Shown one piece after another: positions 45,335 through 63,805 of a stretch of 64,000 nucleotides of DNA. The notes beneath the pieces were generated by a model. That model ran no database searches. It had not been told where the DNA came from and saw only the letters and a program-made list of their open reading frames with translations. Made by a program: the position numbers and the translations under genes. The stretch lies in assembly GCA_016180135.1 (NCBI GenBank), contig JACPBV010000004.1, forward strand, positions 26,868 through 90,867, written 5' to 3'. Origin of the DNA: Candidatus Woesearchaeota archaeon. GTDB taxonomy: Archaea > Nanobdellota > Nanobdellia > Woesearchaeales > JACPBV01. Within the stretch, counting starts at the first letter, position 1. Every line of letters begins with the position of its first letter.

Positions 45335-45790
45335 ATGGAAAGAAAAATATCTCCTCTTACCGCCTTACTCTTGATTTTATTAGTAGCTCTCATACAGGCC
45401 TGTGGCAGGACGCAGACCACCCCATCAAATCGGGCAGCAGTTCTCAGCGATCAGCCCGCACTTCCTGGAGAAGACGCCGACCTTCTCGCTCCGGAAGGCT
45501 CCTTCAATGGTGCAACGCACAATGTCGTAATAAAAAATTTCCGTCTCGACCCCCAGGAAATTACGATCAGAAAAGGCGACAGGGTTATCTGGCAGAATGA
45601 TGACATGTGGCGTGAAGAGGGAATCTACCACCAGTTTTTTGCCCACAACAACAGGTTCAGGACACCAAAATTCTTCAGCGGCGAATCAGCAAACCTGACG
45701 TTCGAAGAGCCGGGCACGTATACTTACTTTGACGTCATCTACAAAGAAAGGGAATTCCTGAGGGGGAAGATAACGGTCTTAGGGGGATAA
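45335..45790 (+). CDS. cupredoxin-like secreted/lipid-anchored protein lacking the canonical Cys copper ligand
   Basis: A signal peptide with LIQAC lipobox-like Cys is present. HNVVIKNFRLDPQEITIRKGDRVIWQNDD...PGTYTYFDVIYKEREFLRGKITV follows the plastocyanin-like pattern, but Asp sits where the ligand Cys is expected. Confidence 0.5.
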   Translation: MERKISPLTALLLILLVALIQACGRTQTTPSNRAAVLSDQPALPGEDADLLAPEGSFNGATHNVVIKNFRLDPQEITIRKGDRVIWQNDDMWREEGIYHQFFAHNNRFRTPKFFSGESANLTFEEPGTYTYFDVIYKEREFLRGKITVLGG

Positions 45791-46032: not shown

Positions 46033-46180
46033 AAATGCAAATATTCCACCAGTCTCTGACTGGTGGTTGACTCTCGATTAGCCATTGGGAATATTTGCCT
46101 TCTCAGAAATCCGACCCGAGCGACCGAAGGGAGCGAGTAATCCCCCCGTCTGTGACGGGAGGTGGTCGGATTTCTTTTGA
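46033..46180 (+). repeat. family-D two-domain structured repeat, copy D2
   Basis: More than 90 percent identical by eye to D1 (26854-27003), with the same four stems. Confidence 0.7.
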
Positions 46181-46254
46181 ATAATTGCGGCAAATGTAGC
46201 ATAACTACTGCAATTATCTATATTTTTCTGATGTAGAAGTTTTATCCAATATCT

Positions 46255-46262
46255 TTTTATAA
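46255..46262 (+). promoter_or_regulatory. TATA-like box (tttttata) 22-29 nt upstream of the ATG at 46284
   Basis: Position and composition. Confidence 0.45.
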
Positions 46263-46283
46263 TAGAATCTCCTAAACCCCCTT

Positions 46284-46913
46284 ATGGCGCAAAGCTTCTC
46301 ACCATCGCTGTTTAAGAAAGAGCTTGCCGAGTTGATAAGGCTGAAAGATGGCCTTGAAAACGAACTGAGAAGAAAAACTAACCAGTTCAGCGCTTATGCG
46401 GATGCAGCAAAGAAAGCCTTTTCTCTGATGGGGAAGAAATACCCTAGCCTTTCAGTTGGTCTCAGCGTAAAGCCCGCAGGCATTTCTGTAAAAATTCTCA
46501 TCAGGGAACGCTCATGCAAGGATGCTTTTTTGCAGGCCGCCAGGATTGAAGGCCTCAGTGCGATAGGAACCTCTTCTTTCAACCAGGTGAAGGTTGAGGA
46601 GACAGATAAATTTTCCAAGGAGATTGACCGCCTGAAAAACCGCCTCTTCCTTACCTATGGCGCCCAAAATGCCATGAGGTCAACGATGCTTCTGAGCTCA
46701 GCGAAGAAAGGCTGGATTGAAGTAGCGGCCGATTTTGACATAGCCTTAAACAACCCCCTAATAGCCCTGCTGCTCCAGTATGCCTCCCGGGGAACGCAGA
46801 AGAAGCTCAGTATCCTGGAATTCACCAGAAGCATTGGTTTCACAGAAAACCCTCATCTCGAGCAGGCAAGATCATACTTCAAAGGATTTGACCCTAAGAT
46901 GGATGATATCTAA
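46284..46913 (+). CDS. hypothetical protein
   Basis: A 209-aa ORF with its own TATA-like box. It is helical/charged and I recognise no family. Confidence 0.5.
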   Translation: MAQSFSPSLFKKELAELIRLKDGLENELRRKTNQFSAYADAAKKAFSLMGKKYPSLSVGLSVKPAGISVKILIRERSCKDAFLQAARIEGLSAIGTSSFNQVKVEETDKFSKEIDRLKNRLFLTYGAQNAMRSTMLLSSAKKGWIEVAADFDIALNNPLIALLLQYASRGTQKKLSILEFTRSIGFTENPHLEQARSYFKGFDPKMDDI

Positions 46914-47211
46914 AATTAGAGTGCAGCAATCTTTGCCCTTCTTTGTTGCATGGCTCCCCCCTCTCCCCTGAAACACAAATTTCTTCCCCCACATCCCTCC
47001 CCCCCCACTAACCCCCATTTCTTCCCCCTTACCCTCACTCTTCGAGGTATAAATATCCCCTTTCCAAGCATCAATCCTATTAGATAAGAACAACCAAGAA
47101 AAACTTCCTATCATCTGCGACGAGTCTCTAACCCCTATATCTTCCCATCTTCTTACTATATACCATAAATAACCAATATCTTTATAAACAAATCCCATAG
47201 AATAAGAACTC

Positions 47212-47502
47212 TTGGCTTCAAAAGAAGGCATGGAGACGGATGTAGACAGAGTTCTTGCTAGTGTCAGGAAGAAGCGTTTGCTGATGGAAGTCGAGGTCAA
47301 GGGCCTCATCGAGAAGAAGGAAGAGGAAATTTCCATCCCCTTAAGCATTTTCTCGGAGAGATTAGGCATGCTTGAGTCTATCGTTCATTATCTCAGGGAT
47401 TCTCATGGGCTTTCTTTTACAGAGATTGCAGGGCATCTAAAGCGGGACTACAAGACAGTCTGGGCGACATATCAGCAGGCAAAGAAAAAGTATAAGCGAT
47501 GA
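47212..47502 (+). CDS. small helix-turn-helix protein (sigma-70 region-4 / LuxR-like HTH), translationally coupled to the giant ORF
   Basis: LGMLESIVHYLRDSHGLSFTEIAGHLKRDYKTVWATYQQAKKK looks like an HTH. The stop overlaps the giant-ORF ATG (ATGA at 47499-47502). The start may be TTG 47212 or ATG 47230. A TATA-like ctttataaac lies at 47181-47190. Confidence 0.55.
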   Translation: MASKEGMETDVDRVLASVRKKRLLMEVEVKGLIEKKEEEISIPLSIFSERLGMLESIVHYLRDSHGLSFTEIAGHLKRDYKTVWATYQQAKKKYKR

Positions 47503-50500
47503 AACAATCCAGCAAAGTTAAGGAAATCAGCGCAGGCATAAGGGAGCTCAGGCTCTCAGGGAAAAATGCCGATAATGCCAGAAAGAGCTATGCAAGGCTG
47601 CTGGAAGCCTTGCTTCAGGAAAAAGAAAAACTGCAGTCTCATCTCAGCAAAGGGATTCTATCAGAGCAGAACTATGATCAGATTCTCCAGGAAAATCTTG
47701 ACGGCAAAACCAGGATGCAATGGATTGCCTATTGTGAAAATATCCTTGGCAGCGCAGATTCCAAAAAACAGCAGTATCGCCGATGGGTCGGAGTTCTTGA
47801 GGACGACATTGGCCGGATTAAACGATCTTTCAGGAAGGGAAGCATCTCCCAGGAAGCATACCATCATCTCCTGAACCAGAAGATTGAGGGAAAAACCAGG
47901 GAAGGATGGATTGTATCCGCAAAAATGGCGTTGTATGGTCTGGAAGAGGGTGAATCCCTGGCGGGCGCTCAGGGAATTTTAAGCCGCAGCGCATCGTCAG
48001 TAATCAGAGCATCAAAATCGCTGCTAGAAGAGAAAAAGGAACTCCTCGTTAACACCGCCCCTATAATATTGATGCTCTTGCTTCTCAGCCTCTCAGCTTT
48101 TTTTATCAGCCCGGCGCACACCGGATTTGCAGTCATAAGCATAGAGAATGGATTTGAGGATTCCTTAAACCTCTCCCTCAACGGGTCATCCTCATTCCTC
48201 TGGGCCCCGGCCAGCCACGGAATGATAACGAACATTGCAGTCAGCGGAAGGCTTTCAAAAGGTGCCGGAGCAAAAATCTACCTCGAAAAGGCCGGCAGGC
48301 TTTATCTGCTCCTTGATACTGAAGCTGGCTTGAAGACAGAAACAGTTTTGCAGGAAATTCCCGGCATTGCTGCTGGAATCAGTTCCCTCCCGCAGCAAAA
48401 GATCCCCCTCACCGGAGAGATTGAAAACCTATCTGTTGCCCTTATCGGCTCAGGGCCAGTTCAATCAGCAAATGATATATTTAAATTCGGCTTGAAGCAA
48501 AGGGCAGGATTAGACAACAGCTCTTCAGTCCCTGATGAGAACTTCTGCGCACTATGGAAAGTGAACAATGTTTCGGCAGAGTGCTATGGAAATGCTGACT
48601 GCTGCAGTTTTGCGGGCCTCGAAGCCAGTGGCTCCTGGAATGATACGTTCTACCTGTATTCCGGAAGATTCAGCGCAAAGAAAGACAATCTCATTGAGCC
48701 AATCCTTATCTCTTACGATGTCAATCTGAGCATCCCGAAGTCCGATATTAGGATTTCCTCCGCAGTTGCGGAAGCCCATTTTGCGGATGAGCTGGAGAGA
48801 TTCAGCCTTGCATGCATGGAAACGTGCAGCGGCCTGGAGTTTAACGAATCGCGATACTCTCTTGTTGTCTCTTTGGCAATTGGCTCGCTCATCCTTGACA
48901 GCATCTCTTACAAAATGGCCGAAAGCTATAACGTATCAGAAAATTCCCCTCTGCTCCAAAAGAACATCTCTAATGTGTCGCTCTACCAAAACGAAAACAT
49001 CACGTTAAGCCTTAATGATTTCTTTGCCGATGCAGACTCCGATGCGCTGGTATACTATGCTTATCCTGCAGAAAATATCAGCTTTTCTTTTTACCAGGGG
49101 AACATCACCGTCATCCCTGATAAGGATTTCCTCGGCAAAGCATCAACATTTTTTACTGCCTCAGACGGCTTTTTTAATGCCACTTCAGGAATAATTGATA
49201 TTGAGGTTGCTGAAAAGCCGCTCCTCCCGGCTCAGGTATCGGTCACCCAAACTCCCATAAAACCCAAGGTAAGGGTCAATGAGCCGGTGAAATGGGTTAC
49301 AAGAGTTAATTCCACCAGGAAAGTCATAAACCTCACGATGAGCCTGGCGCACGGGGCTGAGAACATCTCCGTCAGAGAATTGACTCAGGGCAGCATTGAT
49401 ACCTCAAGAGTCATTGATACATCCAAAGTGATTGATACATCCAAAGTGATTGATACCTCAAGAGTCATTGATACTGCTGGATTCATGAATCTTAAATCAG
49501 TATTTGTCAGCGAGCAGGGCCAGACTAAAAACCTCTCGCTCTATAATGCCGAAAAGTATTTGGCCAGGCTTGAATCCAGGGAGGAGATGCTTATTGAAAC
49601 CAAAAGGGGAAAGATTAAAAATGACCCGACGGAAATTGAAGCTCTGAAATCTCTTAACACCCAATTGCGTGATGTTGAAAACGAGAAAAACCGGATTACA
49701 GGATTTGTTGTTGCCCAAAGAGGGCAGAAAGGCATTATAACCCGATTTTTTGAATGGCTCATCCAATCAGACCTCGTCGGATTTGCCATCCTCAACGCCC
49801 CATTAGCTCCAATCACCACTCCCTCCACTAATCTCATCCCCACCCCCACAACTAATCACGCCACTAACTCCTTCCCCACTCCCTCCACTAATCTCATCCC
49901 CACCCCCACAACTAATCTTGAAGAGCCTGGCGAAAATGCCCATCCCCCAGTATTGACGATTGCCGAGGGGATTAAAGAAGCCGAGATTACTTATTTCACG
50001 GAAGCTCCGGTTGCCGAGGAATTCAATCTGTCAGAGTCAGGCAAGCGCATTATCATCAGCTCAGACATCCACTATGAAAACATTACGGCTTTCACTTACC
50101 TCCCCGGCGAATATGCCTCTTCAGGCATCCATCTGTATTGGATGAAAAACGGCTCAAGGGAAGAGGTAAATTTCACAGCATTTGATGAAAACAATAACGG
50201 CAGGATTGATTATATCGAATGGATCATCCCCTCGTTGTCAAACCAGACATATGATCTCTCCCTCACCATCATCACACTGAAGAGTTATCCTATCATTGGA
50301 AGAAACTGGACGACAGAGTTTAATGTTTCCGGCACAGCAAACCTCACGATCACTGCAGTCAACAGCACAAGTTTTGGCCAGGTCTACGTTGACAATTTCT
50401 CCTCGGAAGACGACCTCTATCTCAGGGAACTGAAATGCGGTAATCTCACCGTATGGAACAACGGCACAAATTATTCATCAGGCAATGTTTTCTTCGTCCT

Positions 50501-53500
50501 CAGCAATGGCACCGAGGCAGCCTGGAGCGAAACATTCGGAAACAGCCTTCCAGTAACTTCCTTAAAAGTTGTTGACTTCAGCTGCAGCAGTTCAGCGTAT
50601 CACATTGTCAAGGTTGAAACCCACGGGGACCATGTCCAGGAATTCACTTTTGGAAATATCACAAAATATGCTTACAATCATGCAGGGGGGACAGCATGCG
50701 GTTCAGACGGCCTCGGCTCAACCTGCCAGGGAGGGGGAAATGCCAGCCTTGACACGTGCATTGATACTGACAGCTCTAACACGCTTGATGGGTCGGATTT
50801 CTGCCATGGCGCTAACCAATGCCTTGATTCCCATATCGGCGCTTCCTGCAACTATGCCACCGGCCCGACATCAGGGCTCTGCGCCTACAACGGTGCAACC
50901 TCTGCAACCTGCTCAAACCTCGTAATCTCCGGGGAGTATGGCACAGGCATAACTGGCGGTTCTTCAGTAAACTTCCACAGCGGCAATGAAAATTCATCAT
51001 GCTCCCCTGCATCAGAGATGATGGTCTGCAATATCTCTACGGGATACAACCCTCAGGGCGGTGATCTCTGCCTCGACTCATCATGCACGGATCCTGCAAG
51101 CGGGATTGTTTCCCTTAACTGCATCGATCAATCCTGCTCAACGTCGGATGTCAGTGATGCGGCAGTATTCGGCGACTGTAATGCCACGGGCGGAGGCTGG
51201 GCCTGTGACAGCAGCCTTGGCTCATCAGGGTTTGCCCAGGACGGGATTTGCTCAGTGACCTCTGGATTTAACACCTATGGGTGCGCAGCTTCCGGATATA
51301 TCTGCAATGCTACCTCGGGCCCTTTTGCCGGAACTATCTTCAAAAATGGCTGCGGTGTTGGCATGGAGTGTTCAGACAACGATCCCTGCGACTCCTCATT
51401 GACAGACGGCAATTTCAATAAGGCAGCAGGCACATGCTCGGGCACAGACTGTGTCGGTGTCGCAGTTGCCAGCATCTATGCATTCAACCACTCTAAAACC
51501 TCGCCGACAAGCCTCTACCTCGTGAACGGCTCAGTGAACTCCTCCGTCATCAACGGAACAAATATAACCCATAATCAGACCTTAAACTTTACCCACCCGA
51601 CGTTTGGCCTTCGGCTCCAGATTATCGCAAACTTCTCAAGCTGGGATGTTGACATTTCCAACCTTACCATTGACGCAAACAACTTCAGCACTGCCGTGAA
51701 TTGGACATTTGTTGACCAGAGAGCTGTCCCCAAGAATCACACGCTCTACGTCCCCAACACCCTCCAGCTTGGCGTGTATGCATGCGGAACAGCAAACAGC
51801 ACAGGGGAAGTTTTCCCAAAATGCCCGAACAGGACGGTCTGGACGGACTCGGAATTGGGGGCAGGCTCGGTCGTCGTAAGGAATGGGCTCGTAGCGTATG
51901 AGCTTTCTAATCGTTACGTTGTCTCCAACCTTTCGGGCTCCGGAATAGGTCAGGGTGTTGCAGAATGCGGAGCGCTAAACCGTGAGAACGTCACCTATAA
52001 CCTCCTTCAGTCAGTCACTGATACTGACACCTGTTTCACAATCTCCGCCAATAATGTTACGCTTGACTGCAACAATTTTTCCATCACTTATGCAACTGCA
52101 GCTAACGGTAATGGCATCACCGTCAGCAATGTAAACAGGACAACGATCAGGAACTGCACCTTCATCAAGACCTCCGGTCAGGGCTCCTCATATGCCGTTC
52201 AGTTGTCTGGAGCAAACAATGCATCCATCAGCAACAGCTCATTCACTGCTGCTTCTTTAATTTCTTACCCGATTTACCTGACTTCATCCTCAAGGACAAA
52301 CCTGATTCAGAACAACAACATCACCGCTTCAGGAGGGAGCCCCGGAATCTATATTGATTCTTCCTCGGGACAGAACATCATCCTTAACAACAACATTACG
52401 ACTGTCGCAGCCTCGGCGCCTGCTGTTTACATCACTGGCTCTTCCAACAACACCCTTGACGGGAACAATATCACCACCGCCGGAAAAGCATCGTTCGGCA
52501 TACAGCTTGATGCCTCATCTTTTAACACAACTATAATCTTTAACAACATTACGACCGAAGGGAACTCATCTCACGCAGTCTATATCCTTGCAGCCTCAAA
52601 CTTTACCAAAGTATTGAAAAATGTAATCATCACAAAAGGATGGACATCATCCGGTATCATGATTTCTGATGCGTCATACAATATGGCCGAGAACAACTCC
52701 CTGGATATCCTCAACAGCACTAACGCAGCCTTTTACATCAACCAAAGCTCGCTTGCAAACAGCTTTTCAAAAAACAATGTGACTTTCTCAAGAGGGGACG
52801 CAATCCATATCATCTATGACCCGAAGCCGACCTCAGATGGGGGGCCTGTCCCGAGGTTCAATAATTTCTCGAACAACACGTTCTCCAATATATCCGGCTT
52901 TGACCTGATGCTCACCCCTATGATAAGTGCTCCCGGAGTTTCCCAGATAAACCTTACCACCCTGATTGACCAGCCCATAAAGAGATACAACTTCACCAAT
53001 TATGGCGGCTTGTTTGCCATAAGGTCATCCGAATTTGGGGAAATCGCTTTTTTCACCGTCATCAACGGCTCAGGAACAAATTTCAGCAATGATATTATCA
53101 TCAAAAATAATTCTATCACAGTTAATGCTTCAGCAGGGAATGGAATATTCAACAGCTCAGCAAACCTTACATTCTTTAACCTAGGGGACAGGGGCTTTGC
53201 CAATCCCGCCATTCTTTACAACGGTGGAACGTGTGATTTAACCACCTCCCCGCTCTGCCTGAACTTTACCGGCCTTACTGCTGCGACGGTCATCTTGAAT
53301 GTTACTCATTTCAGCAATTACAGCATCGGGGGTCAGGTTGATTTAAGCACACCTACTGTCTCTGTCATCTCGCCAACGCACAGGAACTACACGCTAAGGC
53401 AGATCGACTTCAACATTTCCCTGAATGAGGCAGGGAGCGCATGCAAAATGGCATTGGACAGCGAGGGAAATATCACGATGAGCGCTGTAAACAGCTCTTA

Positions 53501-59500: not shown

Positions 59501-62465
59501 AACACTCCCTGATTTTAATCAGGAAATTAACCTCCCCTCTACTGATGATCCTCAGTATACTCCTCCCGGGGATAATCCTCCATCAGAATTCCCATCTCCT
59601 CCAGTCAGTCCTCTTCCTCAGCTTCCCCTTATCCCCCTTTTCCCGCCATCATCTCCACCCATTGTTCCTCAGCTCCCGCTTATTCCTATCGCGCCTCTTT
59701 TCCCCTTCCTTCCGGAATTGCCTCCTGTCATTCAGCTTCCCCCGATTTATATCTTCCCGCCTGAAATCATTGTTCCTCAGCTTCCCCCTCAGCTGCCTTT
59801 GATTCCATTCCTTCCACAGCCGGCCCCGGAACTTATTCCTCAGCCGCCTTTGACACCTCCAGATCTGATTCCCCTTATGCCGCCGGAATTCCCTGCCCCG
59901 CCGGAACAGCCTGCTCCGGAATTAGTTCCGCCTCAGGAACCCATCATAAGTCCGGAATCTCCCGTCAGTCCGGTAGCCCCAATAACTCCAGAAGCACCTG
60001 TAACTCCGGAATCTCCGGAAACTCCAGAGCAATATGCTGAACGATTGAAAGATTTGGAAGCAGGCGCAAGAAGCATATCTGAAAACACATTCCCCTGCAG
60101 GTTCGCAAATATCACCAGCATTAATTCTTCAATTGCGCTTAAGAAAGGAAAAGTTACCAGGGAATACATCCCTAAAGGGTATGATCTTATTTTAGAGCCC
60201 TTCTTTGTTTCCTGCAGCGGCCAGTCCCTCCAGCTGACATTGAGCATTCCGGAAAACTACACTGATGTCCGGCTGTTTAAATGCGCCGAGGGAAAATGTG
60301 AGCCAAGGGCCCTTACCACGACCCAGGACCTGAGATGCCTCCCGAACGGCTCAAATGAGATCAGGCGCGTCAATGATTATCTTGAGCCAGAGTTCATCAA
60401 TGTCCAGACAAAAGAAGTTAAGGCAAATATCACCCAGCTCTCAACTATTCTGGCTTCAGGAAATAGGTCAGTCCAGTTTAAGGGCGGCGCTATAGAGAAC
60501 ATCACTGCCCAGCTGGTTAAGTCCCTTAACCCCGTGGAAGAGCCAAAGAACAAGTTTCTGAAGATTGTTGGCATCCCCCTTATCATCAAAGTGGGCGATG
60601 AGGGCAGCGTTGGGGACAGCCAGGGGGATAATCAAGAGGATAATCAAGAGGATAATCAAGAGGATAACCTTAGGGATAGCTATGAGGATATCAATGAGGA
60701 TAGCCATGAGGATAGCAATGGGAATAGCCGGGGGGACAGCAATGAAGTGAAGATCACACTCCCTTTCTCAAAAACCGATATTGGATATGTTGACGAAAAA
60801 AGCCTGTCGCTTTACGGGAAAGTCCCTGAAGGATGGTCATGGATTCCAAGCGCTATATCCTTGGACCATAGCTCTGTGTCAGCAGTTATCTCAAACATGA
60901 GCGCTTATCTTGATGGCAGCAGCACCGCTACCTTTGCTGTTATGGGAACAATCTGCCAGAACTGCACGAACACCGTGCTTGAGAGAGTTTACAACGGAAC
61001 CTCAAGGAAAGCATTGCTTTTGGTCCACGGCTTTGCAAGCTCCCCCGAAACATTCTCTGAGATCCTCGGAGATATCAGGCAGACAAAGCAGGAATTCCAG
61101 GTATGGACATTTGCTTACAGCTCCAGCCTGCCCCTGCAGCAGATTACCGATGAGCTGATAAGCCAGCTTCAGCGCAGTTCTTTTGAGTTCGACATCCTTT
61201 ACATCGGTGCCCACAGCCTCGGAGGCATTGTTGTCCAAAAAGCCCTTGACGATGCCTCGTCAAGAAACAAGGAAGTATTCACCTACTCCTTCCTGCCGAA
61301 AGTGAAAAAAGTCATTATCGCAGGAGCCCCTAATGAAGGCTCAATACTCTTAAGGGCCTATGAATCAATCTACAATTTCCTGATTAACCATGCAAGCAGG
61401 CTCAACAATCTTTTCAACCCAAGCCCCGACTTTGTTGAGATCCTCAGGAAAGGCCTGCTTGTCCCCCGCCTTGAGGGAGTTGAATATTATGTTATCGCAG
61501 GAACAAACCCTGATGAGTTCCCCGGATTCTTGAACCTCATCAGGGTCAATGACACCAACGACGGCCTTGTCACAGCAAAAAGCGCGCAGCATATCGGCGA
61601 TGCTGTCCTTGATGACCGCTGCGCTAATTTCTGGGACATCAATGTTTCCCACACGAAGCTTATCGATGATGACGTGTCAAGGAAGCTGATTGAGCGCATC
61701 GTCGCAAAAGAGATATTTCAGGAAGGCGATGACCTTGCTCTCGGCCATACGAAATATTTTGAAGTCAATGTCCCCTTGTGCAGGCCTGATGAAAAGTATA
61801 TCCTCATCGGAAAGCCGGTTCCTGCTGCGGCGATAGAAGACCCTACAGGATGCCTCTGCGGGAACGGTGTCTGCGGCATCGGTGAGACAGAGCTGAACTG
61901 CCCGTCAGACTGCTTTGTAAGTCTATCCCCTCAAAGATTCTTAACCGTCGGATGGCCGCTGTTCCTGCTGCTGCTTCTGTTGATGGGGTCAGGTGCAGTA
62001 TATCTTCAGCGGAGAAAGATTCATTACTGCGCTGAGCTTTCCTATTATCAATTCCTCCGGCAGGATTGGGCAGCGGTAAGGGGAATGCATGTGAAGAAAG
62101 CGGTCCAGGCATACCGCCGCCTGTTGCTCATCTATAGGGCGCTTCTCGGGCATGCCGGAAAGTTCCACCAGCTTGTCCTGTATTGGAAGGTAAAAAAAGT
62201 CTACACTGCCCTCATGGGATTGAGCATTGAGGAGCGGAAGCTTCTGGCCTTTGCCGATAAGGTCGAGGCAGCAGTCAGGCGCCGCCATCCTTCAGCCCAA
62301 AAACTTTATCGTTCATTGGAACAGCAATACGAGAGTCTCCTGCAGGAAAGGATTGCAGAGGAGAACAAAAAGCAGGGCCTGTTTGCCAGGCTGGCTATGA
62401 AACGAAGGGATAAAAAAATCTACGGAAGAGTCCTGGGGATTTACAGGCAGTTGAAAGGGAAGTAG
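47499..62465 (+). CDS. giant (4,988 aa) doubly anchored, sequon-rich multidomain surface protein
   Basis: A single uninterrupted ORF. There are hydrophobic anchors near both ends. In between are Cys-rich modules, parallel beta-helix (PbH1-like) repeats, a LamG-like lectin domain, Ig/FN3-like repeats, a Pro-rich linker and an alpha/beta-hydrolase domain (GAHSLGG). Confidence 0.9.
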   Translation: MKQSSKVKEISAGIRELRLSGKNADNARKSYARLLEALLQEKEKLQSHLSKGILSEQNYDQILQENLDGKTRMQWIAYCENILGSADSKKQQYRRWVGVLEDDIGRIKRSFRKGSISQEAYHHLLNQKIEGKTREGWIVSAKMALYGLEEGESLAGAQGILSRSASSVIRASKSLLEEKKELLVNTAPIILMLLLLSLSAFFISPAHTGFAVISIENGFEDSLNLSLNGSSSFLWAPASHGMITNIAVSGRLSKGAGAKIYLEKAGRLYLLLDTEAGLKTETVLQEIPGIAAGISSLPQQKIPLTGEIENLSVALIGSGPVQSANDIFKFGLKQRAGLDNSSSVPDENFCALWKVNNVSAECYGNADCCSFAGLEASGSWNDTFYLYSGRFSAKKDNLIEPILISYDVNLSIPKSDIRISSAVAEAHFADELERFSLACMETCSGLEFNESRYSLVVSLAIGSLILDSISYKMAESYNVSENSPLLQKNISNVSLYQNENITLSLNDFFADADSDALVYYAYPAENISFSFYQGNITVIPDKDFLGKASTFFTASDGFFNATSGIIDIEVAEKPLLPAQVSVTQTPIKPKVRVNEPVKWVTRVNSTRKVINLTMSLAHGAENISVRELTQGSIDTSRVIDTSKVIDTSKVIDTSRVIDTAGFMNLKSVFVSEQGQTKNLSLYNAEKYLARLESREEMLIETKRGKIKNDPTEIEALKSLNTQLRDVENEKNRITGFVVAQRGQKGIITRFFEWLIQSDLVGFAILNAPLAPITTPSTNLIPTPTTNHATNSFPTPSTNLIPTPTTNLEEPGENAHPPVLTIAEGIKEAEITYFTEAPVAEEFNLSESGKRIIISSDIHYENITAFTYLPGEYASSGIHLYWMKNGSREEVNFTAFDENNNGRIDYIEWIIPSLSNQTYDLSLTIITLKSYPIIGRNWTTEFNVSGTANLTITAVNSTSFGQVYVDNFSSEDDLYLRELKCGNLTVWNNGTNYSSGNVFFVLSNGTEAAWSETFGNSLPVTSLKVVDFSCSSSAYHIVKVETHGDHVQEFTFGNITKYAYNHAGGTACGSDGLGSTCQGGGNASLDTCIDTDSSNTLDGSDFCHGANQCLDSHIGASCNYATGPTSGLCAYNGATSATCSNLVISGEYGTGITGGSSVNFHSGNENSSCSPASEMMVCNISTGYNPQGGDLCLDSSCTDPASGIVSLNCIDQSCSTSDVSDAAVFGDCNATGGGWACDSSLGSSGFAQDGICSVTSGFNTYGCAASGYICNATSGPFAGTIFKNGCGVGMECSDNDPCDSSLTDGNFNKAAGTCSGTDCVGVAVASIYAFNHSKTSPTSLYLVNGSVNSSVINGTNITHNQTLNFTHPTFGLRLQIIANFSSWDVDISNLTIDANNFSTAVNWTFVDQRAVPKNHTLYVPNTLQLGVYACGTANSTGEVFPKCPNRTVWTDSELGAGSVVVRNGLVAYELSNRYVVSNLSGSGIGQGVAECGALNRENVTYNLLQSVTDTDTCFTISANNVTLDCNNFSITYATAANGNGITVSNVNRTTIRNCTFIKTSGQGSSYAVQLSGANNASISNSSFTAASLISYPIYLTSSSRTNLIQNNNITASGGSPGIYIDSSSGQNIILNNNITTVAASAPAVYITGSSNNTLDGNNITTAGKASFGIQLDASSFNTTIIFNNITTEGNSSHAVYILAASNFTKVLKNVIITKGWTSSGIMISDASYNMAENNSLDILNSTNAAFYINQSSLANSFSKNNVTFSRGDAIHIIYDPKPTSDGGPVPRFNNFSNNTFSNISGFDLMLTPMISAPGVSQINLTTLIDQPIKRYNFTNYGGLFAIRSSEFGEIAFFTVINGSGTNFSNDIIIKNNSITVNASAGNGIFNSSANLTFFNLGDRGFANPAILYNGGTCDLTTSPLCLNFTGLTAATVILNVTHFSNYSIGGQVDLSTPTVSVISPTHRNYTLRQIDFNISLNEAGSACKMALDSEGNITMSAVNSSYYNFTNVSVSTAFHNVTFFCNDTSNNFGIVTGYFRVSINATCAFGLNCSQHFGLDACVDTTADNTPDSCQNETRDCASYIGKSCDLSNNSQGICTNNSRCEGNLLVAGEYGLGIVGGSLGDFHSGNETAGCSGGTEAMICNASINSSYSPKAWSYCADNSCIEPATTSAVSFDCKDNECSIADISAAAFQPSCVSGWACDSPVNGSGWSQDGICDSSGTPQCIIDGRGNVCNSSSGTLVNSSCGSSCAANDPCDATLADGNFNRSYGACQGSSCTQITANGKPSVSVPAFNTSSPSSTDVIRAQVNYSDPDANQGDVFIFWFSNNTNIYNRTFSRVSNGSVLNATLGPLNFTRGRVINVTVNATDGQLYSLTNASIPLTIGNAPPALASPALNISTPSEIDSIKVNTTYSDQDNDTGSVNITWYVNQVPKFNQSFQGVANGTVLTSNFSLGNFNETDKINVSIIANDSSSNGSLVWSRSAIITPGPNVSSCGNLSLNQTTFTLQQDVSAAQTCFSLSGEDIVFDCAGKSINYSSGYWGSAFNNSLGFSNITIKNCVINQQNQTAGSSPALDIKNAENMTIQNVSITTFGSSSYAISIDTGQNITISGSTLKTNGSNAFAIYLTGGRGNITIINNTIETNGSAADGIDSTGVDSQNIFGNTITVRGADSRAIDPGVSDDNSIKANIINASGADAYGISVGGASHIDNTVGNNIIDLYGTGSIGIFLGVDGFASHANNTITARGSSSIGIDISNTRYTEIYNNTINISGSSGRGIRSDTTPDNMNIRENLITITGSGGMGAYLKQATSFNFTNNTILVNAGTSTGIYTETSSALNISLNTINATGSSTRAVVIWRTERSVFKYNNITYAGLDAFFIDNGNGNSYYNNFTGNSIGGSGGHDFFFDDPNILGTRFIDQTVREINLTTGGMEMYIENTTFGEIYFFKNTTGDSVDLNSNLIIGNNTVSVNSASIPGFNTSANISLYALGSRGFSVPVILRDSDTVCNRTSAPQCTNFTGLDANVVRFNVTSWSNFSIADSGVSTPSIYFPANGKNHSSVPYLNFSSFDSNGNPITYNVYINGTLNATTTTNITSWNASDGYYNMTVSASAGGLGSANATYTFFRKDGVQPSFADNQTNVTSAKINDIIQFNLTVMDNASGLSYYLFSWNGTGAWDNLTNASLTGAGRKLVLNKTLAVSSGNTIGYRWFVNDSAGNMNETETRIFSIGNTAPNLTAPQLNDSSLYASEDIQASATYEDADGSAGTVVFQWFRNNSLIFNQSFHGLANGTTPYSNLSRSNYSAGDLINVSVFANDSSQASAVVNMNINALTVQETEVPQIRFIGPTPPNGTKTPINFTVVNISLEESNLNILKLDWNGSNYTLFNNTLVLALNFDNRSSLGENNSLVKDISRNYYPGILSGPVFGSASGIYGGAYTFDGLDDNITFPHTGHFDINNGSFTMESWIKMNPNATGPRHIMGKRSDDGGNWTRLYSLDGDVRFEFTGGVAVQAPGPFNDTLWHYIIATRLANGTSILYVDANLTYAGTNPGNVSNQANFTIGRWSYENSFNGTIDEVRFWNRSFTEKEVNITYHSNLKKLNQSGYGLIYNATGLLDNRTYNYSAYAQDDAGNENRTETRSISIDATPPSFSLNQTNASQAAKNGNISFNITLADSFTGLSFYLFSWNGTGAWENLTNGSLSAASSQSLSLNKSTNLTNGSVVAYQWFANDSAGNKNSSGEGSFIIINAAPSTPVVAAPVSGSNLTNVAINFSSSDTDGHQITFRIFINNTLNITTTANITAWNASDGFYNLTITATDGSTSSQNSTVIFFRLDTTAPGFSGNQTNSSAARQDGNITFNITMTDLGAGLSSFIFSWNGTGAWENLTNGSLNGASSQFLNINKSPAVAANKVVGYRWYANDSANNFNSTETGTFSILPTCGDSLCDSSEATSCAADCDWCGDSVCSSGETCSSCSSDCGSCPGGEYHSPAPSPPSSAPGSGYSAPPNVQPPSVTLPDFNQEINLPSTDDPQYTPPGDNPPSEFPSPPVSPLPQLPLIPLFPPSSPPIVPQLPLIPIAPLFPFLPELPPVIQLPPIYIFPPEIIVPQLPPQLPLIPFLPQPAPELIPQPPLTPPDLIPLMPPEFPAPPEQPAPELVPPQEPIISPESPVSPVAPITPEAPVTPESPETPEQYAERLKDLEAGARSISENTFPCRFANITSINSSIALKKGKVTREYIPKGYDLILEPFFVSCSGQSLQLTLSIPENYTDVRLFKCAEGKCEPRALTTTQDLRCLPNGSNEIRRVNDYLEPEFINVQTKEVKANITQLSTILASGNRSVQFKGGAIENITAQLVKSLNPVEEPKNKFLKIVGIPLIIKVGDEGSVGDSQGDNQEDNQEDNQEDNLRDSYEDINEDSHEDSNGNSRGDSNEVKITLPFSKTDIGYVDEKSLSLYGKVPEGWSWIPSAISLDHSSVSAVISNMSAYLDGSSTATFAVMGTICQNCTNTVLERVYNGTSRKALLLVHGFASSPETFSEILGDIRQTKQEFQVWTFAYSSSLPLQQITDELISQLQRSSFEFDILYIGAHSLGGIVVQKALDDASSRNKEVFTYSFLPKVKKVIIAGAPNEGSILLRAYESIYNFLINHASRLNNLFNPSPDFVEILRKGLLVPRLEGVEYYVIAGTNPDEFPGFLNLIRVNDTNDGLVTAKSAQHIGDAVLDDRCANFWDINVSHTKLIDDDVSRKLIERIVAKEIFQEGDDLALGHTKYFEVNVPLCRPDEKYILIGKPVPAAAIEDPTGCLCGNGVCGIGETELNCPSDCFVSLSPQRFLTVGWPLFLLLLLLMGSGAVYLQRRKIHYCAELSYYQFLRQDWAAVRGMHVKKAVQAYRRLLLIYRALLGHAGKFHQLVLYWKVKKVYTALMGLSIEERKLLAFADKVEAAVRRRHPSAQKLYRSLEQQYESLLQERIAEENKKQGLFARLAMKRRDKKIYGRVLGIYRQLKGK
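48058..48117 (+). other. N-terminal transmembrane anchor of the giant protein
   Basis: The hydrophobic run PIILMLLLLSLSAFFISPA follows about 185 aa of charged, Lys/Glu-rich sequence. Confidence 0.7.
49395..49475 (+). repeat. in-frame 18-nt tandem repeat (IDTS[RK]V x4.5) in the giant ORF
   Basis: attgatacctcaagagtc / attgatacatccaaagtg / attgatacatccaaagtg / attgatacctcaagagtc / attgatactgct.... Confidence 0.9.
49817..49917 (+). repeat. in-frame 60-nt-period repeat (perfect 41-nt core x2; TPSTNLIPTPTTN)
   Basis: cactccctccactaatctcatccccacccccacaactaatc occurs at 49817-49857 and 49877-49917. Confidence 0.85.
50685..51465 (+). other. Cys-rich module 1 of the giant protein
   Basis: GGTACGSDGLGSTCQGG...CIDTDSSNTLDGSDFCHGANQCLDSHIGASC...GTDCVG. 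It is homologous to module 2 at 53615-54335. Confidence 0.7.
52032..52820 (+). other. parallel beta-helix (PbH1-like) repeat region 1
   Basis: A period of about 22-23 aa, e.g. NNNITASGGSPGIYIDSSSGQNIILNNNITTVAASAPAVYITGSSNNTLDGNNITTAGKASFGIQLD. Confidence 0.7.
53615..54335 (+). other. Cys-rich module 2 of the giant protein
   Basis: ATCAFGLNCSQHFGLDACVDTTADNTPDSCQNETRDCASYIGKSC...GSSCTQ is collinear with module 1. Confidence 0.7.
55035..56180 (+). other. parallel beta-helix (PbH1-like) repeat region 2
   Basis: ITIKNCVINQ...NVSITTFGSSSYAISIDTGQNITISGSTLKTNGSNAFAIYLTGGRGNITIINNTIETNGSAADGID... has periodic N-x-I/T turns. Confidence 0.7.
57639..58235 (+). other. LamG / concanavalin-A-like lectin domain (Laminin_G_3-type)
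   Basis: LALNFDN...GGAYTFDGLDDNITFPH...FTMESWIKMN...WHYIIATR...LYVDANL...FNGTIDEVRFWNRSFTEKEV is the canonical pattern. Confidence 0.8.
60612..60743 (+). repeat. in-frame 12-nt tandem repeat (11 units, 3 near-perfect) encoding an acidic [DE]-[DS]-x-[QNE] tract
   Basis: ggggataatcaa gaggataatcaa gaggataatcaa gaggataacctt ... translates to GDNQEDNQEDNQEDNLRDSYEDINEDSHEDSNGNSRGDSN. Confidence 0.85.
61011..61672 (+). other. alpha/beta-hydrolase (lipase/esterase, PGAP1-like) domain
   Basis: LLLVHGFASSPETF (oxyanion region), the nucleophile elbow GAHSLGG (61206-61226), and later NDGLV and SH as candidate Asp/His. Confidence 0.7.
61941..62007 (+). other. C-terminal transmembrane anchor of the giant protein
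   Basis: WPLFLLLLLLMGSGAVYL is followed by RRK and about 150 aa of basic helical tail. Confidence 0.7.
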
Positions 62466-62554: not shown

Positions 62555-62603
62555 AATGCAACCATTCCATCCGGTCTTTGACGGGGGGGTCGGATTATTT
62601 TGA
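62555..62603 (+). repeat. internally deleted family-D derivative (D4), abutting A5
   Basis: aatgcaaccattccatccggtctttgacgggggggtcggattattttga joins the D 5-prime end (aatgcaaatattccaccagtctttgac) directly to the D 3-prime end (gacggggggtggtcggatttcttttga). Confidence 0.5.
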
Positions 62604-62608
62604 AAAAA

Positions 62609-62935: not shown

Positions 62936-63214
62936 GGCGGGAAGGCTAGGCCGGGATGCTAGTGCCACCCTGTCACCTGAAACGCACTTCAGCAGGGGCC
63001 GAAGCTTTGCAAGCGGCATTTTGCTTTGCTGGTGGTCTTTGCCCGTACGTCGAAGCTCTGTCCTTTGGGATTGCCTGTTCAGTGAACCTGGTCAGGCCCG
63101 GAAGGGAGCAGCCATAAGCTGGATGGATGATGCTCAAGGGGTAGCGGAGTGGAGGAAAGGCAGAGGCAGCCATCATCAGGGTAGATTGTCCATTGCGGGG
63201 CATGCTTTCCCGCT
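62936..63214 (+). ncRNA. ffs: signal recognition particle RNA (archaeal-type 7S / SRP RNA)
   Basis: The helix-8 motif ggtcaggcccggaagggagcagccataag lies at 63089-63118. The terminal helix gcgggaagg (62937-62945) pairs with ctttcccgc (63205-63213), including one G-U. A length of about 280 nt fits the archaeal long form. The ends are approximate. Confidence 0.8.
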
Positions 63215-63239: not shown

Positions 63240-63572
63240 CTATAACTCAAAAATCAGTTTAAGTTTATGATCAACATCTTCTATTTTGCTTTCTTTCAGC
63301 GAACCAATTTTATAGGAGATTATAGATTTTTCTGCGGTGAAAATTCTATTCGGCCGAATCCTGCTTTCAACCTGCAGTCTTCCAGCCTTAAAGTCGGAGT
63401 CATTGAGGACAACTGAGTATTCATCTGTCCTCGCTTCGCTGGTAATCTGGCAAAGAACAACATCGTCACCTGTAAGCGCCGCAATAATCAAAGCTGGCCT
63501 TTTCTTTGAGCCGCTTAAGTCGGAGAATGGAAATGGTAGGACTACAACTTCCCCCTTTACAAATGTGCCCAT
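63240..63572 (-). CDS. mazF: MazF/PemK-family type II toxin (endoribonuclease)
   Basis: GEVVVLPFPFSDLSGSKKRPALIIAALTGDDVVLCQITS is the PemK signature. Confidence 0.85.
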   Translation of the reverse strand: MGTFVKGEVVVLPFPFSDLSGSKKRPALIIAALTGDDVVLCQITSEARTDEYSVVLNDSDFKAGRLQVESRIRPNRIFTAEKSIISYKIGSLKESKIEDVDHKLKLIFEL

Positions 63573-63805
63573 GCTTTGTCTTCCTCTTTGGTGCTCCAGT
63601 CTTTTGCCAAAACCTTTTCGGAAGCAAGGGCAGTCAGAATTGGTTCGTTTAATTTTTTTAAAGGCCTTAACTCCACCTTATCCTGAAATGCCAAGATTGC
63701 CACCTTTGACCCTACCCTGAACCCCTCTCTTTTTCTAATATCGAGGGGAATTGAGATTTGGCCTTTTTCTGTGATGGTGACTGTTTTAATTTCCAGCAGC
63801 GGCAT
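63557..63805 (-). CDS. AbrB/MazE/SpoVT-family antitoxin
   Basis: TVTITEKGQISIPLDIRKREGFRVGSKVAILAF is the motif. A 16-nt overlap links it to the toxin gene. ggaggt lies 7 nt upstream of the ATG. Confidence 0.8.
   Translation of the reverse strand: MPLLEIKTVTITEKGQISIPLDIRKREGFRVGSKVAILAFQDKVELRPLKKLNEPILTALASEKVLAKDWSTKEEDKAWAHL

Follow-up and report, generated by a model that had tools for sequence, protein, structure and literature searches.

No genomic feature of the host-dependent DPANN archaea is more conspicuous than their giant surface proteins. We know of no described mechanism that controls these proteins, and of almost none of these organisms that can be cultured. The closest described examples are the SPEARE and related giant membrane-anchored proteins of the Nanohaloarchaeota (e.g. 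NAR1_1133 and SVXNc_0300), in which the ATPase is the most conserved part and was first read as a type III restriction helicase and later as VirB4/TraG-like (PMC6642349, PMC10266531). Regulators that are themselves membrane-bound one-component proteins are represented by ToxR and CadC in bacteria and by ArnR and ArnR1 in Sulfolobus (PMC6396743).

The locus described here lies in a 64-kb stretch of DNA (the window) from a Candidatus Woesearchaeota MAG; the organism is a tiny, probably symbiotic archaeon. Gene 1 (47212..47502, +) codes for a 96-aa helix-turn-helix (HTH) protein and gene 2 (47499..62465, +) for a giant protein of 4,988 aa, and the start of the second overlaps the stop of the first by 4 nt (ATGA, 47499–47502), as the original prediction had noted. 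The window also contains a large glycan-biosynthesis island and, downstream of the giant ORF, a MazF gene. We consider that the two genes probably form an autoregulated operon with a leaderless mRNA, in which an HTH regulator is paired with a giant adhesin-like surface glycoprotein. The 96-aa protein, as a dimer, would bind 17-bp palindromes that flank the TATA box and abut the start codon and would autoregulate its own transcription and that of the giant gene; the giant protein would be membrane-anchored, mediating attachment to a partner cell or polymer surface and perhaps acting on that surface enzymatically. The new part is the coupling of a giant surface protein to an HTH gene.

The giant protein shares several features with the SPEARE proteins, which are likewise giant (4–9 kaa) and mostly extracytoplasmic, carry LamG and Ig-like modules among others of the adhesion type, span the membrane close to the C-terminus, end in a cytoplasmic part, and have a proposed role in host contact. 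Its beta-helices, LamG, Ig-like repeats, Cys-rich modules, Pro-rich linker and putative DUF676/PGAP1-like esterase are a domain set typical of giant surface proteins in DPANN archaea. Unlike the SPEARE proteins, it has an N-terminal cytoplasmic repeat domain and a first TM segment (TM1); whole-protein and segment Pfam scans find no serine protease or toxin-like match in its ectodomain; and the tail (aa 4837–4988) contains no P-loop or ATPase family by Pfam or sequence inspection. Membership in the SPEARE group is ruled out by the lack of an ATPase tail, and neither the HTH pairing nor the promoter operators found here are described for SPEARE in PMC6642349 and PMC10266531. The two groups are joined by relative L092, which has both the IDYIEWI domain of the present family and a HerA/VirB4-type (HerA/DUF87/TrwB-type) ATPase tail.

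The 15-kb ORF is one unbroken frame of 4,988 codons, as originally predicted. Independent assembly supports 46108–49845 only, through four Logan contigs that are 100% identical and all stop at 49845, inside a linker region discussed below, and contigs reached via the MazF gene stop short of the 3' end of the ORF; for 49846–62465 the basis is the MAG contig and collinearity with relative L020. Exact look-ups of the giant protein in the protein collection give no match, and neither does a search of aa 1–700 against 5.8 billion proteins, from which its relatives are absent because most are cut at contig ends; a scan of GTDB genomes with the whole protein returns low-complexity DNQEDN matches only. 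A chimeric assembly or a pseudogene in decay is nevertheless a highly improbable account of the ORF, even with the partial contig support, the stop of the four contigs at a PT-repeat and the missing exact protein in its favor: an open frame of 14,967 nt at 48% GC cannot be chance, there are no long near-identical DNA repeats to mislead an assembler except the 45-nt PT repeats, L020, which comes from a separate assembly, has its domains in a collinear order, and the partitioning of sequons and Cys residues and the composition are coherent along the whole ORF.

A Kyte-Doolittle scan finds only two TM-grade segments, TM1 at aa 187–207 (48057–48119) and TM2 at aa 4815–4836 (61941–62006), which agree within one codon with the two anchors predicted originally and enclose 4,606 aa, an ectodomain of about 4,600 aa. 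All of the N-glycosylation sequons (256/256, 2.9 times the expectation from local composition) and 96 of the 98 Cys residues lie between the two hydrophobic segments, and both segments are bordered on their outer sides by positive charge. Relatives L009, L022, L036, L052 and L074 share this N-TM…C-TM layout, and in L020 a TM/basic loop/TM junction joins two tandem units. These features bear out the prediction of a surface protein, and heavy N-glycosylation of the giant protein is very probable. Of the N-terminal 186 aa, 32 are K+R and 24 are D+E, in keeping with the charged N-terminus of about 185 aa that had been proposed. At the other end, TM2 and the cytoplasmic tail occupy 61941..62462 (+); the tail, foreseen as about 150 aa, has 152 aa and is basic (35 K+R versus 12 D+E), helical and sequon-free. 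No homologue of it was found in Pfam, any fetched locus or the HTH HMM, and its sole Pfam match at E values up to 5 is a spurious one to TPR_Slam (E 0.13).

TM1 and the conserved TGFAV motif that follows it (aa 208–212) lie at 48057..48134 (+), and in 45 distinct family proteins TM1 is directly followed by P-x-[LI]-T-G-[FLY]-[VA]-[VT], a motif that resembles a signal peptidase site. Cleavage there would leave the C-terminal anchor alone, contrary to the giant loop of the original prediction. It is conceivable, although we do not favor it, that TM1 acts as a signal sequence, with an n-region of unusual length, that is cleaved after …P-x-[LI]-T-G, with TM2 alone holding the ectodomain and with the N-terminal GKT..W repeats and TM1 persisting as a separate small membrane fragment. 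The conservation of the motif in the 45 relatives, its Pro at -5 (-4 from the Gly), aliphatic residue at -3 and Gly at -1, which are consistent with the -3/-1 rule, and the short, signal-peptide-like N-termini of many relatives would all fit such processing. The motif is partly forced by the search pattern, however, and could merely begin the first beta-strand; a conserved cytoplasmic domain of 186–330 aa preceding a signal peptide would be atypical, and L020 has the same TM-TGF element internally, after 3,780 aa, within its TM/loop/TM hairpin. TM1 is probably retained, and both segments would then anchor the protein.

The cytoplasmic N-terminus includes two repeats of about 58 aa (aa 26–81 and 87–139; 47574..47915, +), here called GKT..W, which correspond to the internal duplication reported in the original prediction (self-BLAST, aa 23–76 versus 85–138, 30% identity, E 6e-8). 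With a repeat HMM, at least 15 relatives show one to four N-terminal copies, and G69-K70-T71-R72, W75, Y78 and C79 are invariant relative to the homologue in L012. A search of aa 1–186 against 1.84 billion representatives gives three matches, all of them family fragments, and the GKT..W domain is on this evidence a lineage-specific repeat; a likeness to SHOCT has no Pfam support at E values up to 5.

The region following TM1 (48135..49199, +) contains a family-specific N-domain with the motif C..CYG..DCC..G.WN..YL..GR, present in 34 distinct metagenome ORFs, and a weak Big_9/cadherin-like Ig domain (aa 493–567; E 6e-4, under the Pfam cut-off). The linker region (49404..49916, +) is composed of four tandem [RK]VIDTS repeats, a helical stretch, a vestigial anchor (ITGFVVA...FFEWL...VGFAIL, aa 733–765) and a PT-rich repeat (aa 766–806), and has the appearance of an old fusion joint, because in many relatives the IDYIEWI domain directly follows the N-terminal TM-TGF element. 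In the window protein this domain spans aa 810–1076 (49926..50726, +), with an EF-hand-like loop, DENNNGRIDYIEW, at aa 896–908 for which the EF-hand matches are sub-threshold only. No other domain of the family is shared as widely: it occurs at 79 metagenome loci that represent 65 distinct ORFs. The N-terminal ~1,000 aa, TGF motif included, have collinear homologous regions in L012 (608 bits; 34% identity over aa 17–1076), L020 (440 bits), L097 (374 bits) and L099 (355 bits), and L020 remains collinear from the N-domain through the hydrolase, the Cys knot and the TM segment. The architecture was originally presented as one without a name, which still holds, but it is not a one-off and belongs to a large family.

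Much of the ectodomain consists of two blocks that are duplicates of each other (30–48% identity by self-BLAST). Block 1 (50748..53360, +) includes Cys-rich module 1 (aa 1084–1349), right-handed beta-helix 1 (aa 1484–1740) and a post-helix domain (aa 1820–1954), and block 2 (53658..56624, +) includes Cys-rich module 2 (aa 2054–2308), two repeats of about 85 aa (aa 2280–2467), beta-helix 2 (aa 2485–2900) and post-helix domain 2 (aa 2909–3042). The two parallel beta-helix arrays of the original prediction are above the Pfam cut-offs, with Beta_helix at 53.4 and 47 bits (cut-off 25.9) and NosD at 46 bits (cut-off 23.6). Its two Cys-rich modules were recovered by self-comparison and are 40–48% identical to each other; module 1 has no match in Pfam (above cut-off), the PDB or any fetched locus.

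The next segment (56586..59273, +) contains Ig-like repeats (aa 3030–3226, 3594–3740 and 3733–3925), a third ~85-aa repeat (aa 3223–3308), and the expected LamG domain, which matches Laminin_G_3 above the Pfam cut-off (aa 3432–3580; E 1e-20). Three Ig/FN3-like modules had been placed at 56866–57170, 58401–58715 and 58961–59275 and called near-identical; they are present, but are only 50–61% identical by self-BLAST. Their Ig assignment rests on sub-threshold Pfam matches and a PDB sequence search with the block was empty; in L098b the module is repeated at least five times. A double CGDxxC...C..DC knot (aa 3927–3971) and a Pro-rich linker (aa 3976–4215, 30% Pro) follow at 59277..60143 (+), and both were anticipated, as was the second knot site at aa 4785–4805.

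The membrane-proximal block (60144..61913, +) consists of an unknown domain with an acidic low-complexity insert (aa 4216–4480), a DUF676/PGAP1-like alpha/beta-hydrolase (aa 4500–4765) and the Cys knot at aa 4785–4805, and matches L020 aa 3142–3723 in the same order with 39.5% identity (523 bits). Motifs of the putative hydrolase are HG (4510–4511), AHSLGG (4571–4576), NDGLV (4687–4691) and SHT (4717–4719), conserved with L020 as HG (VHGF), [AS]HSLGG, DG[LI]V and [ST]HT; they are candidates for the oxyanion HG, the G-x-S-x-G nucleophile elbow, and the catalytic Asp and His. The alpha/beta-hydrolase of the original prediction is supported by these motifs and by homology to the L020 domain, which is 50% identical and passes the DUF676 cut-off (27.1 bits, cut-off 20.3), but in the giant protein itself all matches are below the Pfam cut-off, the best being DUF7379 at 23.3 bits (cut-off 33), with DUF676 at 13.5 (cut-off 20.3). 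A PDB sequence search and a two-sequence profile search gave no match, and a single-sequence AF2 model of the domain has a pLDDT of 36.5. The putative enzyme would be a serine esterase.

Judged by its domain types, which are of the carbohydrate-binding and adhesion kinds, the giant protein would function in adhesion, and attachment is its most likely role, in line with proposals for other giant surface proteins of DPANN archaea. Archaeal S-layer glycoproteins typically combine many sequons with a C-terminal TM anchor and Ig-like repeats, and these features of the window protein, together with the glycan-biosynthesis island in the same window, could also suit a structural envelope component, S-layer-like or a sheath glycoprotein, instead of an adhesin or host-interaction factor. 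We think this unlikely, as relatives have several divergent paralogues per contig (e.g. two on Ga0233437_1000041), the domain content is highly variable, the cytoplasmic tails vary among relatives (HerA-type ATPase, TPR or HTH), and a dedicated regulator and an enzyme domain suit a variable interaction protein better than a lattice protein.

The HTH protein of the proposed operon is identical in sequence to NCBI MBI2139385.1 and consists of a long N-terminal helix and a sigma-70-region-4/LuxR-like three-helix HTH. The TTG start at 47212, and with it the 96-aa gene originally called, is right, since it aligns with the ATG of the homologues and fits the promoter geometry. The protein is sub-threshold for all Pfam HTH models (Sigma70_r4_2 and GerE, 19.3–20.8 bits versus a cut-off of 25.7, the window unit being below the gathering cut-off); Sigma70_r4_2 is a sub-threshold match in 22 of 36 HTH units (E ≤0.1, best 1e-5), and some homologues carry a precomputed PF08281 annotation. 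An AF2 model made with a 73-sequence alignment has a pLDDT of 87.6, and its top Foldseek matches are ECF sigma region 4 and RcsB. It superposes on 5fgm (SigR region 4) with an rmsd of 0.5 Å over 45 columns, and 3hug and 2h27 also match; the probability is about 1 for all three, with E values of only 0.02–0.2 because the domain has 45 residues. An HTH-unit profile searched against the PDB matches sigma-H region 4 (E 6e-4), and RcsB is among both the best profile and the best fold matches. This confident model predicts a tri-helical fold superposable on sigma region 4, and the protein is a putative DNA-binding protein. Like the LuxR/GerE-type HTH proteins (e.g. the RcsB C-terminal domain), it has a tri-helical HTH and palindromic operators that suggest a dimer, but it has no receiver or ligand-binding domain, only the N-terminal helix.

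The promoter of the HTH gene contains repeated elements related to the 17-bp palindrome TTCYTATTNNATARGAA. A full copy of this class I palindromic operator, ATCCTATTAGATAAGAA, is located upstream (47074..47090, +) and is the sole match in the 64-kb window with no more than one mismatch. Operator 1 (47150..47166, +) lies directly upstream of the TATA box, has an intact left half (TTCTTA) and a degenerate right half, is also an inverted-repeat arm, and lines up with operator 1 at four other loci in the promoter alignment. It is followed by a TATA-box-like element, TTTATAAA (47183..47190, +), in which the TTTATA core is invariant in the five-locus alignment and the last two positions vary; the mRNA is probably leaderless, because this element ends 21 nt upstream of the TTG start. 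Operator 2, ATCCCATAGAATAAGAA (47192..47208, +), has a perfect right half, ends 3 nt before the HTH start codon, is the second-best TTCYTATTNNATARGAA match in the window (2–3 mismatches), and is in register with operator 2 of L009, L012, L015 and L097.

The TTCYTATTNNATARGAA palindrome occurs in the HTH promoters of these four other lineages, with two copies that bracket the TATA box and end 3–4 nt before the start, and the window has the same layout in partly degenerate form. In 1.22 Mb of fetched loci the exact palindrome is found in HTH promoters only, twice in each and 41–42 nt apart, and the two best matches of the window are both in the HTH promoter. Class II and class III motifs occupy the same promoter position in other HTH subfamilies, and the class II motif precedes the large gene in relatives where the HTH is fused or downstream; the three operator classes co-vary with the HTH subfamily. 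TTCCTATTAGATAAGAA is a candidate operator sequence for the 96-aa protein, and the binder of the palindromes is most likely the HTH protein rather than another factor. The palindromic form of the operators suggests binding as a dimer, and the position of the second operator between the TATA box and the start suggests that regulation would be by repression. Regulation in the window could be weakened, because both promoter-proximal operators are half-degenerate, with 2–3 mismatches.

The pairing of the two genes is conserved across many lineages of related uncultured archaea. An HTH gene directly precedes, and mostly overlaps, a large ORF at 16 metagenome-scan loci (14 distinct ORFs), and the same order is seen in five of eight contexts sampled via the HTH protein; all of the partner ORFs are BLAST relatives of the giant protein. 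In L100 the HTH gene is placed after the large gene, and in L039, L080 and L088 the large protein itself carries two to four fused HTH units, which follow its C-terminal anchor and an RRKKKK stretch. The pairing is not universal, in that no HTH is detectable in five of the ten fully assessable relatives with the N-domain, or in most relatives with the IDYIEWI domain alone. Chance adjacency is ruled out by the comparative data, and the coupling to an HTH gene that the original prediction pointed out is seen in the conserved pairing, the fusions and the shared operator-TATA-operator promoter.

The fused relatives resemble the membrane-bound one-component regulators in uniting an HTH, a TM segment and a large external domain in one polypeptide, but their HTH units are C-terminal and in two to four tandem copies on proteins of 1,500–2,000 aa, and the HTH of the window is a separate protein from a separate gene. 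We note that cytoplasmic HTH units could also serve to tether, take up or transfer DNA at a cell-cell junction, with no part in transcription. The two to four very basic HTH units of the fused tails, the ATPase tail of L092 on a protein that shares the IDYIEWI domain, and the parallel with SPEARE-type giants with a VirB4/HerA-type ATPase tail (PMC6642349, PMC10266531) are compatible with such a function, but it is very unlikely here, since the sequence-specific palindromes are located precisely in the promoter and change along with the HTH subfamily, which points to gene regulation, and the window protein is without an ATPase.

The gene pair also recalls the ECF sigma/anti-sigma pairs (sigmaE-RseA, SigK-RslA and FecI-FecR), in which a small protein with a sigma-region-4 fold is likewise encoded directly upstream of a co-oriented, overlapping gene for a membrane partner whose helical N-terminal domain is cytoplasmic and is joined through one TM segment to a large external domain. 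Relatives of the giant protein keep this adjacency, and the window operon is, like those pairs, apparently autoregulated. The differences are that the window HTH protein has no region 2 (a region-4-like HTH and one long helix only), that no anti-sigma domain is detected in the giant protein, and that the operators are dimer-type palindromes flanking a TATA box, not -35/-10 elements. We know of no sigma factors in archaea.

A tentative extension of the autoregulated operon, which it does not exclude, is that cytoplasmic parts of the giant protein (the GKT..W repeats, the tail or both) hold the HTH protein at the membrane and release or activate it when the ectodomain engages a partner or the giant protein is cleaved, an archaeal functional analogue of ECF sigma/anti-sigma pairs, of ToxR/CadC-type tethered regulators, or of Notch. 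The more specific form, in which a sigma-region-4-like regulator is captured by the giant adhesin (or in the fused relatives is part of it) and is freed or activated by host binding or pulling to start a contact-dependent programme, is rather doubtful. The HTH fold is that of sigma region 4, which anti-sigma factors grip, and many of the top matches are sigma-4/anti-sigma complexes; the gene order and overlap are like those of such pairs, the partner has a helical cytoplasmic domain beside a TM segment and a large external domain, and the Rosetta-stone fusions put HTH units on the cytoplasmic tail. Moreover, all 11 of the GKT..W-repeat proteins that can be checked at both ends have an HTH upstream, fused or just downstream; L090, a GKT..W protein whose 3' end is cut, lacks both an upstream HTH and an upstream class II motif. 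Against this, aa 1–186 contain no anti-sigma family in Pfam at E values up to 5 and no zinc motif, the numbers of repeats and of HTH units do not match, L009 has an HTH yet almost no cytoplasmic N-terminus, the window tail is similar to nothing, and co-transcription with simple autoregulation explains the adjacency with no need for binding.

The autoregulated operon of an HTH regulator and an adhesin-like glycoprotein thus remains our preferred reading, and the locus defines a widespread surface-protein family of Woesearchaeota/Nanoarchaeota together with its dedicated small regulator. It provides explicit operators in three classes that co-vary with the regulator, as well as naturally occurring fusions in which the surface protein carries the regulator on its cytoplasmic tail, and metagenomes can be screened for further loci of this kind by their operator and HTH signature. 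Should the regulator indeed be sequestered at the membrane, the pair would represent the first pathway of contact signalling to be proposed in these archaea, an anti-sigma- or Notch-like device in organisms that have neither.

The giant gene (47499–62465, plus strand) is one open frame of 4,988 codons, as originally predicted, and the two proposed anchors are the only transmembrane-grade segments in its product (TM1, aa 187–207, and TM2, aa 4815–4836; Kyte-Doolittle, 19-residue window). The N-terminal 186 aa are charged and contain the expected internal duplication (aa 23–76 versus 85–138, 30% identity, E 6e-8), and the C-terminal 152 aa form the strongly basic tail that had been described (35 K+R versus 12 D+E). 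Every one of the 256 N-x-S/T sequons falls within the stretch bounded by the two hydrophobic segments, leaving none for the end segments; the density there is 5.6 per 100 aa, 2.9 times the expectation from local composition, and 96 of the 98 cysteines are similarly placed. The proposed topology, with an external part between two anchors, thus gains independent support from the distribution of sequons and cysteines. A 45-nt DNA repeat encoding a PT linker is present within the frame (49789–49917, copies up to 98% identical), and it is inside this repeat, at 49845, that each of the four independent Logan contigs stops; it is the most likely site of an assembly copy-number error.

The predicted external part is a mosaic of domains. 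Laminin_G_3 (aa 3432–3580) and Beta_helix/NosD, the latter in two regions, exceed the Pfam cut-offs, in agreement with the LamG domain and two beta-helix arrays initially reported. Although NosD is a periplasmic copper-binding protein family, the matches are probably a matter of fold only; we note two genes upstream of the locus (39151–41745 and 45335–45790), for a copper-type P1B ATPase that has two HMA domains and for a small cupredoxin-like protein. In self-comparison, a block of Cys-rich module, beta-helix, and post-helix domain (aa 1084–1954) recurs at aa 2054–3042 with 30–48% identity, a large ancient duplication. Further internal repeats are a ~85-aa unit in three copies and three Ig-like modules; the latter are where they had been placed (56866–57170, 58401–58715, 58961–59275), but are 50–61% identical to each other and not near-identical. 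The predicted CGDxxC knots and Pro-rich linker (30% Pro), together with an acidic low-complexity insert, are evident from the protein sequence itself, and the Cys-rich modules have no detectable relative in any collection searched. The alpha/beta-hydrolase domain is below the Pfam cut-off in the giant itself, but the call is supported by a 50% identical counterpart in the relative L020, which passes the DUF676 (putative serine esterase) cut-off and with which the HG, [AS]HSLGG, DG[LI]V, and [ST]HT motifs are conserved. PDB sequence searches with the hydrolase gave no match, and its single-sequence AF2 model was unusable.

The first homology searches with the giant returned no relatives, because these are usually cut at contig ends, and the family was reached via homologues of the small upstream HTH gene. 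In Nanoarchaeota MAG GCA_018825175.1 (L012) an HTH homologue overlaps a large ORF (>1,134 aa) that aligns with giant aa 17–1076 (34% identity, 608 bits), and a metagenome scan seeded with this alignment yielded 79 loci with 65 distinct large ORFs of 1,000 to >4,100 aa. L020, of at least 4,119 aa, has the same domain order as the giant, running from N-domain and beta-helix to pre-hydrolase domain, hydrolase, Cys knot, and finally TM (the C-terminal part is 39.5% identical, 523 bits); since L020 comes from an independent assembly, this collinearity argues against a chimeric giant ORF. Its TM is followed by a short basic loop, a second TM, and a second copy of the N-domain; this junction would make sense only in a topology in which both kinds of TM truly span the membrane. 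The large ORF of L020/L062 is thus two family units fused in tandem, the joint (aa ~3700–3810) running from Cys knot and TM over a poly-Lys loop of ~35 aa to a further TM and TGFAV, and such a polypeptide would have at least three membrane crossings and two giant external parts.

The arrangement of an N-terminal and a C-terminal TM is repeated in several complete relatives (L009, L022, L036, L052, L074), and the predicted cytoplasmic tails of family members are variable, interchangeable modules. The L092 tail (after aa 3896) is a HerA/DUF87/TrwB-type ATPase, which makes this protein SPEARE-like; that of L074 has TPR repeats, those of L036 and L091 are coiled-coil or repeat regions (among them repeats bearing a G.IS..EY motif and a coiled-coil-like tail of 745 aa), and those of L039, L080, and L088 carry HTH units. 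The giant resembles the SPEARE giants in overall design (PMC6642349; reinterpreted in PMC10266531), but it lacks their conserved cytoplasmic ATPase, which rules out membership. Its ectodomain repertoire is the same as that of Nanohaloarchaeota host-recognition proteins, for which Ig folds, lectin/LamG, and pectin-lyase-like beta-helices have been described (10.1101/2023.02.24.529834).

What is duplicated at the N-terminus is a repeat of ~58 aa whose GKT..W core is invariant; in at least 15 relatives an HMM places one to four copies of it at the N-terminus, in every case ahead of TM1. The repeat matched no Pfam family and has almost no relatives beyond the giant's family among 1.84 billion representatives; its conservation shows that the long N-terminal extension is translated and hence that the start at 47499 is real. 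Directly after the N-terminal TM helix is the motif P-x-[LI]-T-G-[FLY]-[VA]-[VT] (48105–48134, aa 203–212), present in 45 family proteins of loci L009–L101, and in L020 again after the second internal TM. It could be the first beta-strand of the ectodomain or a signal-peptidase site; in the latter case cleavage would leave a single anchor, with the repeat domain and TM1 as a separate fragment, an outcome for which the conservation of the motif behind TM1 speaks and which we consider possible but rather doubtful. The motif is seen again inside the giant (aa 733–738 and 760–765) beside a degenerate hydrophobic stretch, and in many relatives the domain that comes next, 'IDYIEWI', directly follows an N-terminal TM, for which reasons the giant looks like an old fusion.

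The proposed coupling of the giant to the HTH gene (47212–47502, plus strand) is conserved across loci. In the metagenome-scan set an HTH gene is directly upstream of the large ORF, usually overlapping it, at 16 loci (14 distinct ORFs), and the 34 distinct ORFs with an N-domain include 12 with an adjacent upstream HTH, two with a fused HTH, and two with one within 3.5 kb; five of the ten N-domain ORFs complete at both ends are without an HTH. When contexts were sampled from the HTH proteins, five of eight had the HTH immediately before, and overlapping, an ORF of >1,100 aa. All large ORFs partnered with an HTH are BLAST relatives of the giant. In the other three of the eight contexts the HTH follows a 1,646-aa family member after 163 nt (L100), lies 2.7 kb upstream of a 7,741-aa member (L097), or precedes small membrane proteins only (L015). 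In L015 (4835–5826) the HTH gene and its full operator pair precede genes for a two-TM protein of 57 aa and a pair of 132-aa paralogues, with no giant gene, so the regulator can pair with other membrane-associated products. In L039, L080, and L088 two to four HTH units lie within the large polypeptide, directly behind a short C-terminal anchor and the stop-transfer stretch RRKKKK; these are Rosetta-stone fusions with the HTH on the cytoplasmic face of a surface protein.

The small gene product is predicted to be an HTH protein, as first read, from a confident AF2 model (pLDDT 87.6, 73-sequence alignment) with a long helix (aa 4–28 of the 90-aa form) and a three-helix HTH. The best PDB fold matches by Foldseek are consistently ECF sigma region 4 and the RcsB LuxR-type domain, among them SigR region 4 (rmsd 0.5 A over 45 columns), DNA-bound sigmaE region 4, and region 4 of SigK or SigD in complex with their anti-sigma factors; probabilities are ~1 with E-values of 0.02–0.2, in line with the small size of the domain. 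A profile built from 36 HTH units likewise found sigma-H region 4 and RcsB in the PDB, and 22 of the units match Pfam Sigma70_r4_2 at E <=0.1 (best 1e-5), the window unit being below the gathering cut-off. The 83 small homologues (38–100 aa) include several labelled Nanoarchaeota and some with precomputed PF08281 annotation. The sigma-4 fold, the anti-sigma-like layout of the partner giant, and the HTH fusions would all suit a regulator held at the membrane and released on contact, a more ambitious reading that we think unlikely. An ECF sigma/anti-sigma pair is ruled out by the lack of region 2, of an anti-sigma domain, and of a bacterial RNA polymerase, and a ToxR/ArnR-type tethered regulator is ruled out in this genome because HTH and giant are separate genes; the relatives with fused HTH units represent a variant of that type in which the HTH is C-terminal and multi-copy (ArnR: PMC6396743).

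The HTH promoters contain conserved operators. The class I operator, a 17-bp palindrome TTCYTATTNNATARGAA, occurs twice per HTH promoter in L009, L012, L015, and L097, whose HTH proteins are 48–65% identical to that of the window; the copies are 41–42 nt apart with the TATA box between them, and the second ends 3–4 nt before the start codon. Across the 1.22 Mb of loci retrieved, the exact pattern is confined to those promoters. Its two closest counterparts in the whole 64-kb window are at 47074–47090 (one mismatch) and 47192–47208 (2–3 mismatches, ending 3 nt before the TTG at 47212), and a third, half-degenerate copy (47150–47166) is at the operator-1 position. In the promoter alignment the TTG is exactly where other loci have ATG, and the N-terminus of the 96-aa form aligns with those of its homologues, which supports both the 96-aa start originally chosen and a putative leaderless transcript. 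Other HTH subfamilies have different motifs at the same position. Class II, TTACAYAWATAATARGTA, accompanies HTH proteins with two tandem units and is present in 2–4 copies in some promoters (a single scored copy in L034, L093, and L100); it precedes the HTH gene in L020, L034, and L037, and the large gene where the HTH is fused or downstream (L039, L080, L088, L100; likewise L075, L083, and L093). Class III, the palindrome AATACGGACAATGTCCKTATT, occurs in L024, L098, and L099. Because the operators co-vary with the regulator and track the operon promoter whichever gene is first, they bear the apparent signature of an autoregulatory transcription factor.

The window is archaeal, with an archaeal SRP RNA (62939–63211, 155.6 bits) 474 nt downstream of the giant ORF and a MazE/MazF-like toxin-antitoxin pair beyond it (63240–63805, minus strand). 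The proteins it encodes match those of a Candidatus Woesearchaeota MAG exactly (locus tags HYU14_005xx). Two intergenic stretches of ~92 nt (26911–27003 and 46091–46181, the latter ~1 kb upstream of the HTH gene) are copies of one repeat, 92% identical, with a weaker look-alike near 62578–62605; the repeat has a long hairpin (GAAATCCGACC...GGTCGGATTTC; RNA fold -34.9 kcal/mol, z = -2.6) and may represent a small mobile element or a structured RNA. A glycan-biosynthesis island takes up the first half of the window (281–32274), encoding three GT1/GT4 glycosyltransferases, a GT2, an asparagine synthase, a radical SAM/SPASM protein, two epimerase/dehydratases, a nucleotide-sugar dehydrogenase, a Wzx/MurJ-like flippase, a DUF2079 protein, and a PMT_2/DUF6541-like membrane protein, consistent with a genome that has to glycosylate a 256-sequon protein.

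The best-supported reading, which we consider probable, is a leaderless two-gene operon in which the HTH protein controls itself and the giant, a glycoprotein for attachment. The HTH protein would most likely bind the palindromes as a dimer and regulate transcription of its own gene and the giant gene, and the operator between TATA box and start suggests repression; the giant would most likely attach to a partner cell or polymer, with its membrane-proximal esterase possibly acting on the surface it has bound. The original prediction thus stands with minor corrections, and its interpretation is supported and extended. In the full-text literature searched, neither the pairing of HTH and giant protein nor its operators are described, an absence that is not proof of novelty. 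The giant protein is of a kind already known; the new part is the conserved module of regulator, operator, and surface protein, with its natural fusions.
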